Part shown: piece after piece, positions 10,220 to 19,399 of the stretch
Numbering within the stretch: the first letter of the stretch is position 1
Layout: every line of letters starts with the position of its first letter
Assembly (NCBI GenBank): GCA_963849325.1
Contig: CAWKHF010000002.1
Span: forward strand, 909,026 to 973,025
DNA length: 64,000 bases
Direction of reading: 5' to 3'
Source of the DNA: an uncultured Planctomycetota bacterium
GTDB lineage: Bacteria; Planctomycetota; Planctomycetia; Gemmatales; Gemmataceae
Program-made: the position numbers and the translations under genes
The notes under the pieces: model-generated
Databases searched by the model: none
Seen by the model: only the letters and a program-made list of their open reading frames with translations
Told to the model about the DNA's origin: nothing

Positions 10220-11804
10220 ATGGCAGGCAGCTACGACGCCCTCATCATCGGCGCCGGTCACAATGGTCTGGTGACGGCGTGTTACCTCGCTCGGGCCGGT
10301 TGGAAAGTGCTGGTGCTGGAGCGCCGCTACGTCGTCGGCGGCGCCTGCGTCACCGAAGAGATCTTCCCCGGCTTCAAGGTCTCGACCGCCGCCTACGTCA
10401 ACAGCCTGTTTCGCAAGGAGATCATCCGTGACCTGCGCCTGGCCGAGTACGGCTTTTCCGTGCTCGAACGCAATCCGTCGTCTTTCTCACCCTTTTCCGA
10501 TGGCCGTTATCTTCTTCTTGGCCCGGACGGCGGCCACAACCGCCGCGAGATCGCCAAGTTCAGCGCGCGCGACGCCGAGAACTTCCCCAAGTACGAGGCG
10601 ATGCTGGAGCGCGTGGCCAACGTCATCGAGCCGACGCTGTTGATGCGGCCGCCGAACCTGCTGCGGCCGGGCTGGCGCGACCTGTGGCACCTGTTCCAGC
10701 TCGGCCGGGCCTTCCGCAAGATGGGCGCCGGCATGAGCGAGGCCGTCGAAGTGCTGACCGGCCCGGCCCGCACCATTCTCGATCGCTGGTTCGAGTCGGA
10801 GCAATTGAAGGCCACGCTGGCCACCGATGCCATCATCGGAGCGATGGCCGCCCCGAGCATGCCGGGTACGGCCTACGTACTGTTCCATCACGTCATGGGC
10901 GAAACCAACGGCAAGCGCGGCGTATGGGCCTACGTCGCGCGGCGGCATGGGCGGGCTGACGCAGGCGCTGGCCCGTGCCGGCAAGGCGCTGGGCGTCGAG
11001 GTCCGTACCGAGGTCGAGGTCGCTCGCATCCTCGTCCGGGACGGCGCGGCCGAGGGCGTCGCCCTGGCCGACGGCACGGAGTTTCGCGCTCGCGTCGTCG
11101 CCAGCAACGCCGACGCCCACGTCACCTTCAACCGTCTCCTCGACAACCGCCTGCTGCCACCGGCCTTCGCCGAGTCGATTAACCGCATCAGCTACGACAG
11201 CGCCTCGCTGAAGATCAACGTCGCCCTGTCGGAGTTGCCGGACTTCACCGCCTGTCCCGGCTCGCAGCCCGGTCCGCAGCACCGCGGCACCATCCACATC
11301 TGTCCCGATCAGGATTACATCGAACGCGCCTACGACGACGCCAAGTATGGCCGGCCCTCCGAGAAGCCCGTCCTCGAATGCACCCTGCCGTCGGCCGTCG
11401 ATAACACCGTCGCCCCGGAGGGACGGCACCTGATGTCTCTGTTCGTGCAGTACGCCCCCTACAAGCTGCGTCCGGGCAACTGGGACGAAATCAAGGAGGG
11501 CTTCGCCGATCGCTGTTTCGACATCCTCAACGAGTACGCTCCGAACTTCAAGCGTTCGGTGATCGCGCGGCAGGTACTGTCGCCGCTGGACCTGGAGCGG
11601 ACGTTCGCCCTGACGGGCGGCAACATCTTCCAGGGGGCGATGACGCTGAATCAGCTGTTTTTCCTGCGTCCGGTGCCGGGCTTCGCCGGCTATCGCACGC
11701 CCATTCGCGGCCTGTTCCTGTGCGGCGCGGCGGCGCATCCGGGCGGCGGCGTCATCGGCGCGGCCGGCTGGAACGCGGCGCGGACCATCCTGGGCAAAGC
11801 ATGA
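10220..11804 (+). CDS. Phytoene dehydrogenase-like FAD oxidoreductase (PYROXD2-like; frameshift near 10940)
   Basis: YDALIIGAGHNGLVTACYLA, GGNIFQG, YRTPIRGLFLCGAAAHPGGGV. Confidence 0.9.
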
Positions 11805-11836
11805 GCCATACCGGCATCCGTTGTTGGAGAGTTGGA

Positions 11837-12166
11837 ATGAGTTCTTCCAAAGTTGAAACGCCCGAAGCCCTGGCCGCCCGCGTCGAGGTCAGCGACGATA
11901 CCCTGTCCGTGGAGTTGATTGATGGCCGGACCATCGCTGTCCCCGTGGCCTGGTATCCGCGCCTGGCGCACGCCACCGCCGAGGAGCGGAATTCGTGGCG
12001 GTTGATCGGGGGCGGCCGAGGTATTCATTGGCCGGCGATCGATGAGGACATCAGCGTCGCCAATCTCCTGGATGGTCAGCCGTCGGCCGAGAGTCAAAGT
12101 TCCTTCAAGAAGTGGCTCGCCGGCCGCACGAAACGGGCCGGCAGACGGAAACGGTCGAGGAGCTGA
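11837..12166 (+). CDS. DUF2442 domain protein (putative antitoxin)
   Basis: LIDGRTIAVPVAWYPRLAHAT...GGRGIHWPAIDEDISV. Confidence 0.85.
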   Translation: MSSSKVETPEALAARVEVSDDTLSVELIDGRTIAVPVAWYPRLAHATAEERNSWRLIGGGRGIHWPAIDEDISVANLLDGQPSAESQSSFKKWLAGRTKRAGRRKRSRS

Positions 12167-13475: not shown

Positions 13476-13521
13476 GCAGGTGAAGTGCGGCAAGCGTTGG
13501 CGTCGCTCGGACCTGCCGGCA

Positions 13522-16128
13522 TCACTTCTTCAATTGACTGGTAATACTCGGGTCGGTGATGCGCGCGTCCTCCGCCAGCAGGAAGGCTTTGCTGAGGATG
13601 ACCGACAGCGTGCTGTCTCCCTCGAACGGCAACAAGACACGCTCCTGCCCGGCCGTCGTCTGCCGGGGCACGATGCACAGGTATTGATCGTTCGGTGCCA
13701 TCAGGATGTTGCCGCTGCCCAGGTGGATCTTGTAGCTCCGCAGCGTGCCGCGAACGATCAGGAAACGCTCCGACAGCGTGCAGCGGTCGGCGATCTTGAG
13801 GCGCGGAACCAGCCGTTCCAGCAAGGCGCGTCGCGTCTGCGCCGTGGCGGAGAGTTCGCCGAACGAATAGCTCTGCCAGTAATCGCGATAACGCCCTTCC
13901 GGCCCGCCGTCCGACCAGTTGGGGTCGTTGCCGACGCTGGCCACGCCGACGAACAGATCGACATCGCGCAGGATCTCGGAGAAGACCAGGGCCGGTATCT
14001 TCTCCATCGGCAACGGCTCATCGCTCTCCTGGTCCCAGCGGCCATAACCGCCGCCGCCGGCATGGGCATGCAATTGCGGAGCGTTCAACTCGTAGAAGCG
14101 CACCTGATCGGTCGTCAGATAGAGAAAGGCTCCGGCGTCGTTGGTATCGCGGCCATACTCGTCGCCCGCGCCTTCGATCCAGTATTCCGCCCGCAGCCCC
14201 CAGGCCGGCAGCAACCGATGGGCCGGAGGATAGCTGTCATCCACCATCAGCCGCAGCTTGTTCTTCCAACCGCGCGCGGCGCAAAGAGCATGGAACTGGT
14301 GCTGGCGAAGGACGTGGGCGGCGAAACGATTGGAATACGTGTTCGTGCGGCGCTCCGCGTCGGTGAGCAAATAGACCTCTCGATGCGCTTGCTTGAACGG
14401 TTGAATCACTTCGCGTCGCTCCAGCCAATCGCGCCACGCCAGCACTTCCTCCATCGCCTGGCCGATGGGATGCCATAGGGAGACGGTTGCTTCATCCGTG
14501 AGGTTCAACGGCTTGCCGTTGACGCCAACCAGGCTGCCGCCGTGCCAGATGCCGTTGATCGTTCGGCTTTTGGCGGTGAACGACCAGATGAGGCGGCGGG
14601 CGATGGTGCCGATCAGCGGATGGTCCAGGTAGCGTTCGCGCCAGACACTCAGGGGCCAGGACTTGCGGCTGAGAAACAACGTATCGAGGCGTTCGCGCTG
14701 GGCGGGCAGCATGGCGTTGATGTCCTTGACCGCCGCTTGCAATTCCTTGAGTTCCGCCGCGTGTTCCTTCTTCACGGCGGCGGGAGTGGACTTGATCGGT
14801 TTGTCCTGCTTGAGCCAGTGCAAGGCGGCGGAGCTGCCATCGACGGTCAGCTCGGCCTGGTACTCGCCGAACGATTCGCGGAGTTGACCGACATCCTCCA
14901 GACCATACGACGGCACGGCCAATTCTTCGATGTCCTCGCGCGGCAGGTTTTCGCGCGCCGCCGCGGCATGGAACGCTTTGTCGATTTCCTTCTGGGCGGT
15001 GCCGAACTTGACCTTCACTTTCAAGAGGGCGAGCTGGCCGATGGGCGGCAGACCGGGCATCAGGCCCAGGGCCGTCACGCAGGCATTGCCCAGCGACACC
15101 AGGCGCGGTCCCTTGCCTGGAATTTTTCGGTAGGCGCTACGGCGCAGGCGAGTCAGGGCGCGGGCCAGGTCCGCGTCTTCGCGCAGGCCGGCACACCAGG
15201 CGAGGCCGCGAAGCAGCTCGACATGCACAGGAATGATGAGGTTGTCGTAATCCGGTTCCCAGTTATTCTGCCGCTCCCGGGGTAGCGTTCGGGGTTTATC
15301 CACCAGCGGGAACCAGCGTAGAACGTGTTCTTTGAAGGCGTCGAAGCCGACAGCGTCAAGCAGCCGTCGTGCTTCTTCGGCCCAGCGTTCCGTAAACTTA
15401 CCGCACCCGCCGGTTTGACAATGAATCAGCAGTGCATTCCAGGACTTGCTTGCTCTGGCTCTCATTTTGCGCAGATCGGCCAGGGCGGCATCGGACCAAG
15501 CTTCTCCTTCTTCGAGATGGATCATCGGGCTGCCCGCGAGCCGTGTTTGCAAGCGGTCAGCGACCTTGCGGCTATCCTTATCGTTCGAGTCCTCGCGCAA
15601 AAGAGCGATGAACGTTTCCAGTGTGGCACGGAGGGAATCGCCGCTTTCATTTCCTTCCGCAAAGTTCTCGATAGCGGCCGCCATGCCGGATAGAGGATAG
15701 TAAAAGTTATATTTGTACTGGATGCCATCGGCGGCCCGGATCGGCCATTGAAACAGGCGGATCAAGGTCGCCTCGCTTAACGGCAAGGCACGGCGTAAGA
15801 GTCCTCGCAGCGTTTCTACAAACGGCCAGCGTGAGGTCCAGATGAGGGTCCATTCTCGCACATTCCGCTTCCGCTCCTGTGGATCGAACGCGGCGATCTT
15901 TGCTTCCAAGTCCTCCAAACGGTCGAGGATCGCGTTCACGAGAGCAGCTTGCGTCTCGCCGTCCTGGGCCAGAATCGCCTTACCCTTCGGGAAATCGTTG
16001 AGTTTTTTATTGTAACAGCCGCCCGGAAAACACTTGGAATTGAACTCTTCCACGAACTTATCCAGCAGTTCGTTGGCCTTCCTCTCTGTCTCGGAAAGCG
16101 GGGGCGCATGGGGTTTTCTCTTCGCCAT
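13522..16128 (-). CDS. DUF4132 domain-containing protein
   Basis: 868 aa; LGNAC..ALG, YLDHPL, LWHP, QPFKQAHREVY, SNRFAAH, FSEILRDVDLFVGVAS, YKIHLGSGNI. Confidence 0.75.
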   Translation of the reverse strand: MAKRKPHAPPLSETERKANELLDKFVEEFNSKCFPGGCYNKKLNDFPKGKAILAQDGETQAALVNAILDRLEDLEAKIAAFDPQERKRNVREWTLIWTSRWPFVETLRGLLRRALPLSEATLIRLFQWPIRAADGIQYKYNFYYPLSGMAAAIENFAEGNESGDSLRATLETFIALLREDSNDKDSRKVADRLQTRLAGSPMIHLEEGEAWSDAALADLRKMRARASKSWNALLIHCQTGGCGKFTERWAEEARRLLDAVGFDAFKEHVLRWFPLVDKPRTLPRERQNNWEPDYDNLIIPVHVELLRGLAWCAGLREDADLARALTRLRRSAYRKIPGKGPRLVSLGNACVTALGLMPGLPPIGQLALLKVKVKFGTAQKEIDKAFHAAAARENLPREDIEELAVPSYGLEDVGQLRESFGEYQAELTVDGSSAALHWLKQDKPIKSTPAAVKKEHAAELKELQAAVKDINAMLPAQRERLDTLFLSRKSWPLSVWRERYLDHPLIGTIARRLIWSFTAKSRTINGIWHGGSLVGVNGKPLNLTDEATVSLWHPIGQAMEEVLAWRDWLERREVIQPFKQAHREVYLLTDAERRTNTYSNRFAAHVLRQHQFHALCAARGWKNKLRLMVDDSYPPAHRLLPAWGLRAEYWIEGAGDEYGRDTNDAGAFLYLTTDQVRFYELNAPQLHAHAGGGGYGRWDQESDEPLPMEKIPALVFSEILRDVDLFVGVASVGNDPNWSDGGPEGRYRDYWQSYSFGELSATAQTRRALLERLVPRLKIADRCTLSERFLIVRGTLRSYKIHLGSGNILMAPNDQYLCIVPRQTTAGQERVLLPFEGDSTLSVILSKAFLLAEDARITDPSITSQLKK

Positions 16129-16132
16129 TGGC

Positions 16133-16528
16133 TTACCCTCCCACCAACGGCATCAGACGCAGGAAGGTCACGCTCGTTCCCGCTTCGATGACGAACTCCT
16201 CGTCCAGCGATTCGGTCTGCCGGTCGTTGAGGAGGATCAGAATCTGGTTGTGCTCGAAGCCTTCGATGACGCGCTCGAATTGCCGCTTCCAATCCAGCAT
16301 GCGCGGCTTCTGGAGCTTCCAGCCGTTGAGGGTTTTTTCGGCGTCTTCCGGCTGGACCAGGCCGTGATAGACCTGGCCTTGCTTGATGTTGTAATCTTGC
16401 ACTTCCTGATAGACCCGGCTGCGAAGAAGCTCGCGGACGGTCATCCGCTCCGCGGTCACGTTCAGATCCCATTCGCGGTGCGTTCCCGCGCCGAGTGTTT
16501 CGTCTCGAATAATCACGGTTGCGCTCAT
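16133..16528 (-). CDS. Small ubiquitin/Urm1/MoaD-like protein with C-terminal Gly-Gly
   Basis: RBS GGAGA then ATG 16528; 131 aa ending ILILLNDRQ...EAGTSVTFLRLMPLVGG*. Confidence 0.7.
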   Translation of the reverse strand: MSATVIIRDETLGAGTHREWDLNVTAERMTVRELLRSRVYQEVQDYNIKQGQVYHGLVQPEDAEKTLNGWKLQKPRMLDWKRQFERVIEGFEHNQILILLNDRQTESLDEEFVIEAGTSVTFLRLMPLVGG

Positions 16529-16714
16529 GGGTTGTCTCCGGCCCGTGTCCCGATCGAAAAGCAACCACGACAAAGCCACTGTAATCCTGAAGATCCTCGG
16601 CCGCAAGGATGGTAGTTCCCGAAAGCGCGCCGATTCGTCTTGCACAAGCACGTTCGTCTCGCTATAGCAGCCGCATTCCAGATTCAGGCGCGAAATACCG
16701 CCGGGGAGGGGACC

Positions 16715-17428
16715 ATGCGGCGCTGTCCGCCGATTGCTCGGATCGCACTGCGCGCGGGAGGTTGGCTCGGTCTGCTGATGGCGGCGGGATGCATGCCCCT
16801 CGGCTATGCCTATCCCACGGTCTCCTACGTCGCGCCCTTCCGTGTCCAGGCGCCGCGCGACGAGGTCCACGCCTTCCGCGTGGACGTGGTAGACGACGAC
16901 AACAGCACCGAGACCCACGAGAGGGACCGTTACGTCTTGCAGCCGTTGCCGCTGCACCGCGACGGCAGCTGCGATCCGCAGATGAAAGTCGCCGTCGATT
17001 ACGGCTGGATCTTGAATTCGTTCGCCCTCTACTACGAGGGACGGACGCACCACACCATGCTGGTGCGCCTGTACCGGCCGGGCTACCAGACCATCGAGAT
17101 CGAATCGTGGCAGAAGGACATGAAGGTGAAATGGGTCGAGGCGTCCGCACTCGACGAGCGCGAGCAAGCGATCGACGACCTGATTTCGACGTGGAACACG
17201 ACGCCGGCGCGAATTCAGAATCGGGTCGCTCGCACCGGCTTCGTGCCGCCGCGCGACCCGCTGGTGTTTCACTACCTCGCCGGCGGCTCGGCCTCGGACG
17301 AGCACAGGCGGACCCTGCAATTCGCCGCCAAGGAGTACGAGCGCTTGCTGAACGAGACGCACGACGACGACATGCACGCACGGCTGGAAACGAAGGTAAA
17401 AGCCCTGCGTCAGCTGGCGGCGAAATAG
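16715..17428 (+). CDS. Hypothetical lipoprotein
   Basis: RBS GGAGGG, hydrophobic stretch with lipobox-like AAGC. Confidence 0.65.
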   Translation: MRRCPPIARIALRAGGWLGLLMAAGCMPLGYAYPTVSYVAPFRVQAPRDEVHAFRVDVVDDDNSTETHERDRYVLQPLPLHRDGSCDPQMKVAVDYGWILNSFALYYEGRTHHTMLVRLYRPGYQTIEIESWQKDMKVKWVEASALDEREQAIDDLISTWNTTPARIQNRVARTGFVPPRDPLVFHYLAGGSASDEHRRTLQFAAKEYERLLNETHDDDMHARLETKVKALRQLAAK

Positions 17429-18465: not shown

Positions 18466-18592
18466 AGGGTTGTGTTCCGATGCTTCGGCCTCAAGCATCC
18501 GGGCAGGCCCTTTCGCCATCGCGACGAATCCTGGCCCCCTTGCCAAGCCGAAGCAGTCTCCTTTGCCCGTGCCGGCAGAAAGGACTGTTTCC

Positions 18593-19399
18593 ATGCTGCG
18601 CTCCCCGTCCCGTCGTCGTCCGTCCGCTTTCACCCTGATCGAGCTGCTCGTCGTCATCGCCATCATCGCCATCCTGATCGGCCTGCTGCTGCCGGCCGTG
18701 CAGAAGGTGCGCGAGGCCGCCGCGCGAACGCAGTGCGCCAACAACCTCAAACAGCTGACCCTGGCGGTCCATAATTATGAGTCCGCCAACCAGATCATTC
18801 CTCCCGAGAACGGTCCGTATGGCGGTCCCCCCGGTTATACAACGCAATGGTGGTTCGCCCAAACGAGCTACGATGCCAACTTCAACCTGATCTACGACCC
18901 GACGCAAGGGATTCTCACTCCCTACTACGAGAACAACGCCAAGGTGACCATGTGTCCGAGCCTCAACGCCCCGCCGGGGTTCTTCTCCTACACGTCTCCG
19001 ACGGGGCAACCTCTCACCGGCGGCTACGGCTACAACCAGGCGATCGGGAGTCAGCGCATGGTGCAGATCCAATCGACGAGCACGACGTACCTTTTCTGCG
19101 ATTCCGCTCTGCTGGCTTTGTGCTCCGGCGGTTCCTGCACCATGCAAGAGTCGGACGCCATCGTTGGGCCGGTCCCGTTGGCCGCGAATGGGCCGTTTGG
19201 AATCAATCAGGCGCTGACGCATTTCCGGCACACCAACGTCGCCAACATGGCGTTTCTCGACGGCCACGTCGGAACCGTGCTCCTCACCTATTCGCCGTTG
19301 GACCCCAGCTGGCCGGCGAACGCGGCGACGTATCTTCAGACGAACCAACTCGGTTTCCCGACCAACGCGAACGCGCCCTACGCGGGCAACGGTTCGTGA
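18593..19399 (+). CDS. DUF1559 prepilin-type (H-X9-DG) protein
   Basis: [56 protein letters not shown]. Confidence 0.93.

Follow-up and report, generated by a model that had tools for sequence, protein, structure and literature searches.

The window analysed here is a stretch of 64,000 nucleotides (nt) from an uncultured Planctomycetota bacterium (assembly GCA_963849325.1, contig CAWKHF010000002.1, positions 909,026 to 973,025), and its positions are counted below from its first letter. Its minus strand carries two adjacent genes, one for a 131-residue protein with a free Gly-Gly end and a predicted ubiquitin-like fold, the other for an 868-residue protein with a DUF4132 and a DUF7737 domain (Table 1). 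With confidence somewhat short of even, the pair is read as a self-contained two-gene operon encoding a dedicated ubiquitin-like module; this grading applies to the favoured reading as a whole.

The small open reading frame (ORF), 16528-16133(-), was translated to a protein of 131 residues ending in ...NQILILLNDRQTESLDEEFVIEAGTSVTFLRLMPLVGG*, and its TAA stop codon (16135-16133) is preceded by ...VTFLRLMPLVGG. The spacer GCCA (16132-16129) follows, and directly after it comes the ATG of the large gene. The two Gly-Gly codons, GGA GGG (16141-16136), read at the same time as a Shine-Dalgarno-like GGAGGG for the large gene, so that translational coupling of the two genes is probable. A first-pass annotation, made from the letters of the window, had described a 131-residue ORF with its own ribosome-binding site, a gap of 4 nt to the large gene and an AT-richer 5' third of the latter. 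All three descriptions hold: a GGAG lies at 16539-16536, the gap is exactly 4 nt, and the GC content is 0.55-0.59 over 15250-16450 against 0.62-0.66 over 13500-15250. The GC content at third codon positions (GC3) of the large gene is 0.65 in codons 1-300 and 0.81 in the remaining codons.

Table 1. Features of the two-gene locus, in window positions (pLDDT, predicted local distance difference test score).
Feature	Position	Strand	Basis and remarks
Gene of the predicted ubiquitin-like beta-grasp protein	16133..16528	-	131 aa; ~30-residue insertion (residues ~50-80); free C-terminal Leu-Val-Gly-Gly
GGAG ribosome-binding site	16536..16539	-	8 nt 5' of small-gene ATG; sequence reading
Junction: Gly-Gly codons, TAA and 4-nt spacer GCCA	16129..16141	-	sequence reading
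Gene of the DUF4132-DUF7737 protein	13522..16128	-	868 aa; translation, Pfam, AlphaFold (AF2) pLDDT 84.2
Helical-repeat (HEAT/ARM-like) solenoid, residues 1-400	14929..16128	-	fold searches; residues 1-200 variable, lower GC3
DUF4132 domain, residues 443-621	14266..14802	-	Pfam E 2e-52; invariant QPFKQAxRExY...T.AE...YSNR.A.H
Conserved middle region, residues 622-762	13843..14265	-	invariant E648, D674, R677, E718, R721, D722, D724
DUF7737 domain, residues 763-866	13531..13842	-	Pfam E 6e-42; H802, N807, C818, D838
Cys818 codon	13675..13677	-	candidate catalytic/acceptor residue; C818 in 102/102 sequences
Upstream intergenic region, common to divergent gene 16640-17428(+)	16529..16639	.	no promoter/operator identified by scans

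The small protein belongs to a family of nearly constant length, with 1498 relatives at 90%-identity clusters and 1249 at 50%-identity clusters, nearly all of about 131 residues. The terminal Gly-Gly was found in 118 of 119 close relatives and in 135 of the 150 best representatives, the remaining 15 of which look truncated or frameshifted. In an alignment of 132 members, G130 and G131 were the sole invariant columns, and the stop codon followed directly after the Gly-Gly in 70 of the 71 small genes of the cross-phylum loci described below, which come from many phyla. A search for matches among longer proteins gave one doubtful hit, so the small protein is essentially never fused or extended. 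The family profile found nothing among PDB sequences at E <= 10.

AlphaFold with the family alignment gave a model of the small protein with a pLDDT of 85.8 and a predicted template modelling score of 0.79. The order of its elements, strand-strand-helix...strand-strand, is that of a beta-grasp fold, with the insertion at about residues 50-80, and its tail is predicted to be disordered (mean pLDDT of 37 in the last modelled block). The best structural matches of the model were the MoaD/Urm1/SAMP-like group, and the Bub structure 9eav was also among the matches. Conserved surface residues, those of the insertion included, are D9, R38, E42, N47, L57, P60, Q83 and Q104. The beta-grasp fold with a central insertion and the conserved Gly-Gly, both proposed in the first-pass annotation, are thus supported by structure prediction, fold search and the 132-sequence alignment.

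Beta-grasp proteins with a Gly-Gly end typify both ubiquitin-type tagging and the chemistry of sulfur carriers. Judged from the sequences above, the free Gly-Gly end is under strong selection, and since it is invariant, unfused and predicted to be disordered, the C-terminus would either take part in chemistry or be inserted into a tight pocket. Such an end would be unexpected for a mere binding module.

The large gene had been called DUF4132-like, with a variable N-terminal part. Pfam agreed on the domain (PF13569, 178.1 bits) and additionally placed DUF7737 (PF24879, 142.2 bits) at the C-terminus, both with gathering cut-offs of 27, while the middle region between them had no Pfam match at E <= 10. 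Identity of homologs to the window protein was 26-33% over residues 1-200 and 66-71% from residue 301 on, in line with the supposed N-terminal variability, and the matches to large proteins of other phyla mostly start at residues 100-205. Over the conserved 660 residues, identity across phyla is roughly 45-60%. The AlphaFold model, built on a 59-sequence alignment, consists of a solenoid at about residues 10-400 followed by mixed alpha/beta domains. Fold-search matches were confined to residues 10-400 and were HEAT/ARM-type repeats (Foldseek against the PDB, VIA-align against PDB representatives, and BFVD viral structures). The ESM Atlas, searched with residues 540-868 and with the DUF7737 segment from homolog P0379, returned only DUF4132 clusters and no usable named match. 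The JGI label 'MukF kleisin-like' on one homolog was judged spurious.

Conservation in the C-terminal half of the large protein was studied with 102 such halves from many phyla, in which polar residues at dozens of positions are fully or almost fully conserved, among them the E718/R721/D722/D724 cluster. In DUF7737, C818, D838 and K847 were present in 102/102 sequences, H802 in 101/102 and N807 in 100/102. This half looks enzyme-like in its conservation, and we infer a catalytic or acceptor role for Cys818. The UBC (ubiquitin-conjugating) fold of E2 enzymes consists of an N-terminal helix, a four-stranded meander, a cysteine loop and C-terminal helices, with an HPN-type His/Asn motif before the catalytic Cys. 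The order predicted by AlphaFold for DUF7737 is a helix at 761-776, four or five short strands between 783 and 817, C818, a loop, and helices at 839-852 and 860-867. This order of elements, with the His and Asn upstream of the Cys, recalls the E2/UBC fold, so that an E2/UBC-like nature of DUF7737 may be taken as a lead from the model; the spacing from H802/N807 to C818 differs from the HPN-to-Cys spacing of E2 enzymes. Co-folding of the full 868-residue and 131-residue proteins with both alignments gave a score of 0.12, against a mark of 0.32.

Linkage of the two genes was studied first within the phylum of the window, in a sample of 401 Planctomycetota genomes. The small protein was found in 28 of them, DUF7737 in 30 and both in 23 (comparison of two tables). 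The five genomes with the small protein only all gave weak matches (E 1e-16 to 1e-8), and in the seven with DUF7737 alone the assembly is fragmented (310 to 1330 contigs). A large-protein homolog adjoined the small gene in 19 of 20 loci from the phylum, with both gene orders represented: the large homolog lies mostly downstream of the small gene, is upstream in L037 and L040, and is present as two tandem copies in L039.

With the large protein as query, at least 584 places in about ten phyla were confirmed among GTDB species genomes, and the best 80 of these were taken as the cross-phylum locus set. They comprise Planctomycetota, Verrucomicrobiota, Cyanobacteria, Acidobacteriota, Actinomycetota (Streptomyces, Micromonospora, Rubrobacter and others), Pseudomonas, Deinococcus, Chloroflexota, Gemmatimonadota and Myxococcota. 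The small gene stood beside the large gene, on the same strand, in 71 of the 80 loci (65 upstream, 6 downstream). Four of the other nine loci are cut by contig ends and five have full flanks; all five genomes of the latter carry a small gene elsewhere, which in at least three of them adjoins another DUF4132 paralog or sits just beyond the fetched flank. The conserved linkage to a DUF4132 gene, on which the first-pass annotation had made its proposal depend, is therefore found within the phylum and across phyla. In L039, L066, L070, L077 and L100, two or three DUF4132-DUF7737 paralogs stand in tandem, with two small genes in L070, and one small gene often serves several large paralogs. On plasmids, relatives of the small protein were found in only 4 records. 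The small protein has a divergent branch (E 1e-10 to 1e-16; L052 and genomes G173, G157, G362 and G359), whose partners are far longer DUF4132-DUF7737 proteins with open frames of 1600-1900 residues; the gene order is reversed in G359.

The first-pass annotation had recognised no E1 or JAB gene in the window, and this absence extends to the neighbourhoods scanned around relatives of the pair. The genome of the window has three ThiF-family and two Prok-JAB matches, all outside C2:909026-973025, three ThiS-family genes likewise elsewhere, and no Prok-E2_A, B or E match. Pfam analysis of 79 neighbour ORFs of 10 loci, out of 160 neighbour ORFs in all, revealed no ThiF-type E1, E2 or JAB and no gene common between loci; most of these neighbourhoods consist of ordinary housekeeping genes. 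All-versus-all clustering of the ORFs of the 80 cross-phylum loci recovered the large gene (80), the small gene (70) and otherwise only shadow frames of the large gene. After these, the most widespread genuine neighbour was restricted to 7 related Streptomyces loci, so that no recurrent third gene was found beside the pair in the 80 loci.

The pair was compared with known systems. The Bil, Bub and CBASS Cap2/Cap3 systems likewise have a ubiquitin-fold protein with a reactive C-terminus, and the window partner may, by its model, share a cysteine-bearing transfer domain with them. They carry E1, E2 and JAB proteins, whereas none was recognisable in the 80 and 10 neighbourhoods of the pair. To our knowledge, every characterised Gly-Gly beta-grasp case comes with an E1-type activator. 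Beta-grasp Gly-Gly carriers and modifiers are themselves a known kind of system, in which the DUF4132-DUF7737 partner is unprecedented; the operon here has no E1.

The DUF4132 domain itself is shared with the Yeh-type systems, of which the E. coli set comprises yehF (WGR), yehH/molR, yehI, yehL (MoxR), yehM (DUF5682), yehP (vWA) and yehQ (SWIM); the MolR link reportedly goes back to old genetics. YehI differs in having neither DUF7737 nor the conserved middle region and ends about 70 residues after the DUF4132 domain, and when six window ORFs were scanned with Pfam, neither a WGR nor a MoxR (AAA_5) gene was found beside the window pair. The small neighbour of the E. coli set, YehK, was considered as a counterpart of the small protein and rejected (no Gly-Gly end, no Pfam family). 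A Yeh-like system is also present in the genome of the window, on contig 9 (G000; L063 1142-9029, C9:194141-202028), with a WGR protein, two DUF4132 proteins of 794 and 566 residues, a MoxR-type AAA_5 ATPase and a DUF5682 protein. It is not flanked by a Gly-Gly gene, and its two DUF4132 proteins have no DUF7737 at E <= 1e-3. A ThiS match 3 kb from these DUF4132 genes (L063 9118-10317(-)) proved to be a ThiS-ThiG fusion of 399 residues, probably for housekeeping thiamine synthesis. The Gly-Gly protein thus accompanies those DUF4132 proteins that also bear DUF7737.

The same contig carries, at a distance of about 115 kb from this Yeh-like system, a GH3-family adenylating enzyme, a 469-residue Prok-JAB protein and a short ThiF-family E1 (L064 5488-9979, C9:317487-321978), together with two small unnamed ORFs of 165 and 108 residues. 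This cluster may be another ubiquitin-like system.

Experimental work on a presumed relative of the pair was found in two Deinococcus papers only (PMC8533742, PMC9650054). In Deinococcus radiodurans, one of the control genomes, which scores for DUF7737, DRA0165 is listed as 'putatively in operon with drA0166', with a radiation/desiccation response motif (RDRM) at -83, and DUF4132 is noted in DRA0166. The drA0165-drA0166 operon is strongly upregulated on DdrO depletion, and tagged DRA0166 rises after mitomycin C only with IrrE present (PMC8533742). The second paper studied DR_A0165 (SEP068184) as a 'small ORF peptide'. Its level increases on exposure to gamma rays and to H2O2, cells survive H2O2 better when it is deleted, it pulls down the thioredoxin DR_A0164, and its model was found by the authors to resemble molybdopterin (MPT) synthase; it was also called Deinococcus-confined (PMC9650054), which the cross-phylum relatives found here contradict. 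This operon resembles the window pair in having a small protein modelled as MPT-synthase-like directly upstream of a DUF4132 protein; it has an RDRM and depends on DdrO/IrrE, whereas the planctomycete locus has no known damage operator. In the passages of both papers that treat the operon, it is not described as a Gly-Gly ubiquitin-like protein or as a cross-phylum pair (PMC8533742, PMC9650054), and in the literature consulted no Gly-Gly ubiquitin-like DUF4132 partner or cross-phylum spread was found described, although supplementary regulon tables may list orthologs.

DNA-damage motifs were also found before the relatives of the pair in other phyla. The PafBC motif has the consensus tGTCgg(N10)tA(N3)T (PMC8635444), and in all of the 14 actinomycete loci, which belong to Streptomyces, Micromonospora and Umezawaea, the small-gene ATG follows 7-9 nt after the end of its -10-like part. 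Over 158,780 nt, both strands, there were 15 matches against 0.475 expected from shuffles; these loci are related, so that they do not count as 14 independent events, although the motif is kept between genera whose flanks differ. It was also found before the large gene in L130 and L131, where the small gene is missing. D. pimensis has the small-large pair, and an RDRM-like 17-bp palindrome (L141 3645-3661) lies 12 nt before its small-gene GTG; no second match occurs in the 12 kb, for which 0.01 matches were expected. When about 270 nt around 70 small-gene starts were scanned for perfect matches to LexA boxes of four types (Gram-positive, gamma, alpha and cyanobacterial), only the Chloroflexota locus L095 gave one, a perfect GAAC-N4-GTTC box at -33, so this single locus is possibly under LexA control.

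Other conserved upstream elements were observed in small groups of loci. In two Acidobacteriota loci (L086, L099), an operator-like palindrome, GTTTCAT-N3-ATGAAAC (7-3-7, perfect), precedes the small gene by about 40-60 nt and lies just upstream of a TATAAT-like box. Four cyanobacterial loci (L081, L084, L088, L125) have in common a GGAAC(T/C)GGGTA(A/C) element about 60 nt before the small gene, which does not fit the spacing of the cyanobacterial LexA box. Two Rubrobacter assemblies (L078, L121) have a conserved CGTACGCTTC...GTA(T)ACG repeat about 45-65 nt before the small gene.

From the damage control in other phyla (PafBC, DdrO/IrrE, possibly LexA), the module most likely acts in a genotoxic or oxidative stress response, by analogy with these relatives. 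Taken with the fold, the Gly-Gly invariance, the linkage, the neighbourhoods free of E1, E2 and JAB genes, the damage motifs of the relatives and the invariant Cys, which are established by prediction or sequence, the pair is tentatively proposed to be a stress-induced ubiquitin-like transfer module. In this scheme, the small beta-grasp protein would be synthesised with its flexible Gly-Gly carboxyl end already fit for use, and this end would be activated either in trans by a housekeeping MoeB/ThiF-type enzyme or by the DUF4132/middle region of its partner. The activated end would then be handed to the invariant Cys818 of DUF7737, and the variable N-terminal helical solenoid would select the target or the site of action. 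A bolder form of the proposal is distinctly unlikely: a minimal tagging system without separate E1, E2 or protease, in which the large protein itself would activate the Gly-Gly end at a new adenylating site in the DUF4132/middle region, carry it on Cys818 of an E2-shaped DUF7737 and choose targets with its helical N-terminus, under at least two unrelated damage regulators (PafBC, DdrO) and, in one more locus, a LexA-type box.

Several results weigh against the transfer module. Every chemical step in it is one that we infer. Pfam on the large protein gave the two DUFs only, with no adenylating domain recognisable, and its profile matched only designed helical repeats among PDB sequences. The helical N-terminus filled all fold-search lists, so that the matches never reach residues 410-868. 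For the small protein, Pfam and NCBIfam at E <= 1 gave no family, ThiS/MoaD (PF02597) included. Comparison of DUF7737 by hhalign with two Prok-E2_B proteins, a family found in just 2 of the 401 genomes, gave probabilities of 0.4% and 0.2%, which are not significant; the sole alignment, non-significant and 12 columns long, sets C818 on the Prok-E2_B cysteine. On the biological side, deletion of DR_A0165 is protective and not sensitising under H2O2, and an RDRM upstream of DR_A0165 is denied in the text of PMC9650054, which PMC8533742 contradicts. DRA0165, moreover, is presumably rather than demonstrably the ortholog of the window small protein. Finally, the upstream region of the window has no damage-type operator, sigma-70-like promoter or inverted repeat, and by eye no upstream motif is common to the window and other planctomycete loci; damage induction in this planctomycete is therefore extrapolated from other phyla.

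Four overlapping readings were considered, in decreasing order of confidence the transfer module, a non-covalent subunit, a sulfur carrier and a mobile conflict cassette. The second, which is rather unlikely, takes the small protein as a stoichiometric regulatory or structural partner whose Gly-Gly plugs a narrow pocket, as the tail of MoaD does in MoaE, with no covalent chemistry. The tight translational coupling of the genes, their one-to-one or one-to-several co-occurrence, the lack of an E1, E2 or JAB nearby and the many conserved surface residues of the small protein, insertion included, would all suit such a subunit. However, we know of no beta-grasp adaptor acting by binding alone that keeps an invariant terminal Gly-Gly, and here the Gly-Gly is the sole invariant feature, on a tail predicted to be disordered. 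In addition, a single small gene can be shared by several large paralogs, and a diffusible modifier would account for this no less well than a fixed subunit.

In the third reading, the small protein would be a sulfur carrier of the MoaD/ThiS/CysO type, adenylated and thiocarboxylated by a housekeeping MoeB/ThiF-type enzyme, and the DUF4132-DUF7737 protein would accept or use the sulfur, as MoaE, ThiG and CysM do, with Cys818 in the relay. The likeness to MoaD-MoaE/MoeB, ThiS-ThiG/ThiF, CysO-CysM/MoeZ, Urm1, SAMP and TtuB lies in the beta-grasp fold with its flexible C-terminal Gly-Gly, in the small gene being adjacent to that of the protein served and in the structural matches, of which the best belong to this group. 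The window protein nevertheless has no sequence-level membership of it, the Pfam ThiS/MoaD match being absent, and has the extra insertion of about 30 residues. Its partner is an 868-residue DUF4132-DUF7737 protein and not MoaE, ThiG or CysM, resembling no known sulfur-insertion enzyme by sequence, and the operon has no E1. Control by DNA damage, as found in the relatives, is not typical of cofactor biosynthesis, and moeA and moeB of D. radiodurans are given as not differentially expressed on DdrO depletion (PMC8533742). A sulfur carrier is thus considered unlikely.

The first-pass annotation had named the pair a candidate conjugation or conflict module. The beta-grasp fold, the invariant Gly-Gly and the linkage behind that proposal are supported; conjugation, a ligase or target role of the DUF4132 protein and a part in conflict are all putative. 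As a mobile defence or abortive-infection cassette, the variable N-terminus would sense an invader and the ubiquitin-like protein would regulate or deliver an effector. The patchy distribution (28 of 401 genomes of the phylum), the roughly 45-60% identity between phyla, suggestive of horizontal transfer, the variable N-terminus of lower GC3, the tandem paralog arrays and the location of some loci beside IS21, DarT-associated NADAR, RRXRR-HNH or Hen1/Pnkp genes are in keeping with this role, and damage induction would also suit prophage or phage sensing. It is nonetheless very improbable, since among 5027 PADLOC models (PADLOC-DB 2.0) the large protein matched none and the small protein one at chance level (E 0.021), no relative was confirmed among the IMG/VR matches to 75 patterns from the DUF7737 alignment, tblastn of DUF7737 and the small protein against 50,697 phage records gave nothing at E <= 1, the neighbourhoods are mostly housekeeping, and Pfam revealed no recognisable toxin or nuclease domain.

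The surroundings of the pair were recorded as well. In the window, a dihydroorotase gene is convergent on its 3' end, and the unnamed 262-residue gene 16640-17428(+) is divergent from its 5' end. Pfam on six window ORFs identified the neighbours as dihydroorotase, DUF2442, 3-keto-disaccharide hydrolase and the unnamed 262-residue protein; the small DUF2442 protein (11720-12166(+)) lies directly before the dihydroorotase gene, and a DUF1559/prepilin-type N-methyl protein, typical of planctomycetes, lies at 18470-19399(+). Beside the pair in other planctomycete loci were found a DarT-associated NADAR protein (L035 11462-12424(-)), an RRXRR-HNH nuclease (L041 11153-12556(+)) and, in L042 2444-6711(+), Hen1 and a Pnkp RNA-repair ligase; none of these conflict or repair genes recurs between loci.

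For the published Deinococcus work, the cross-phylum relatives correct the claim that the small protein is genus-specific, as stated in PMC9650054, and the free Gly-Gly end suggests that the C-terminally tagged DR_A0165 described there may not report true partners. In actinomycetes and Deinococcus, the pair lies behind the main non-SOS DNA-damage switches. If the proposed chemistry of the transfer module were true, the pair would be a new member of damage regulons, the DUF4132-DUF7737 family would gain a function, and the activation or transfer of a ubiquitin-like protein might prove to take a novel route here.

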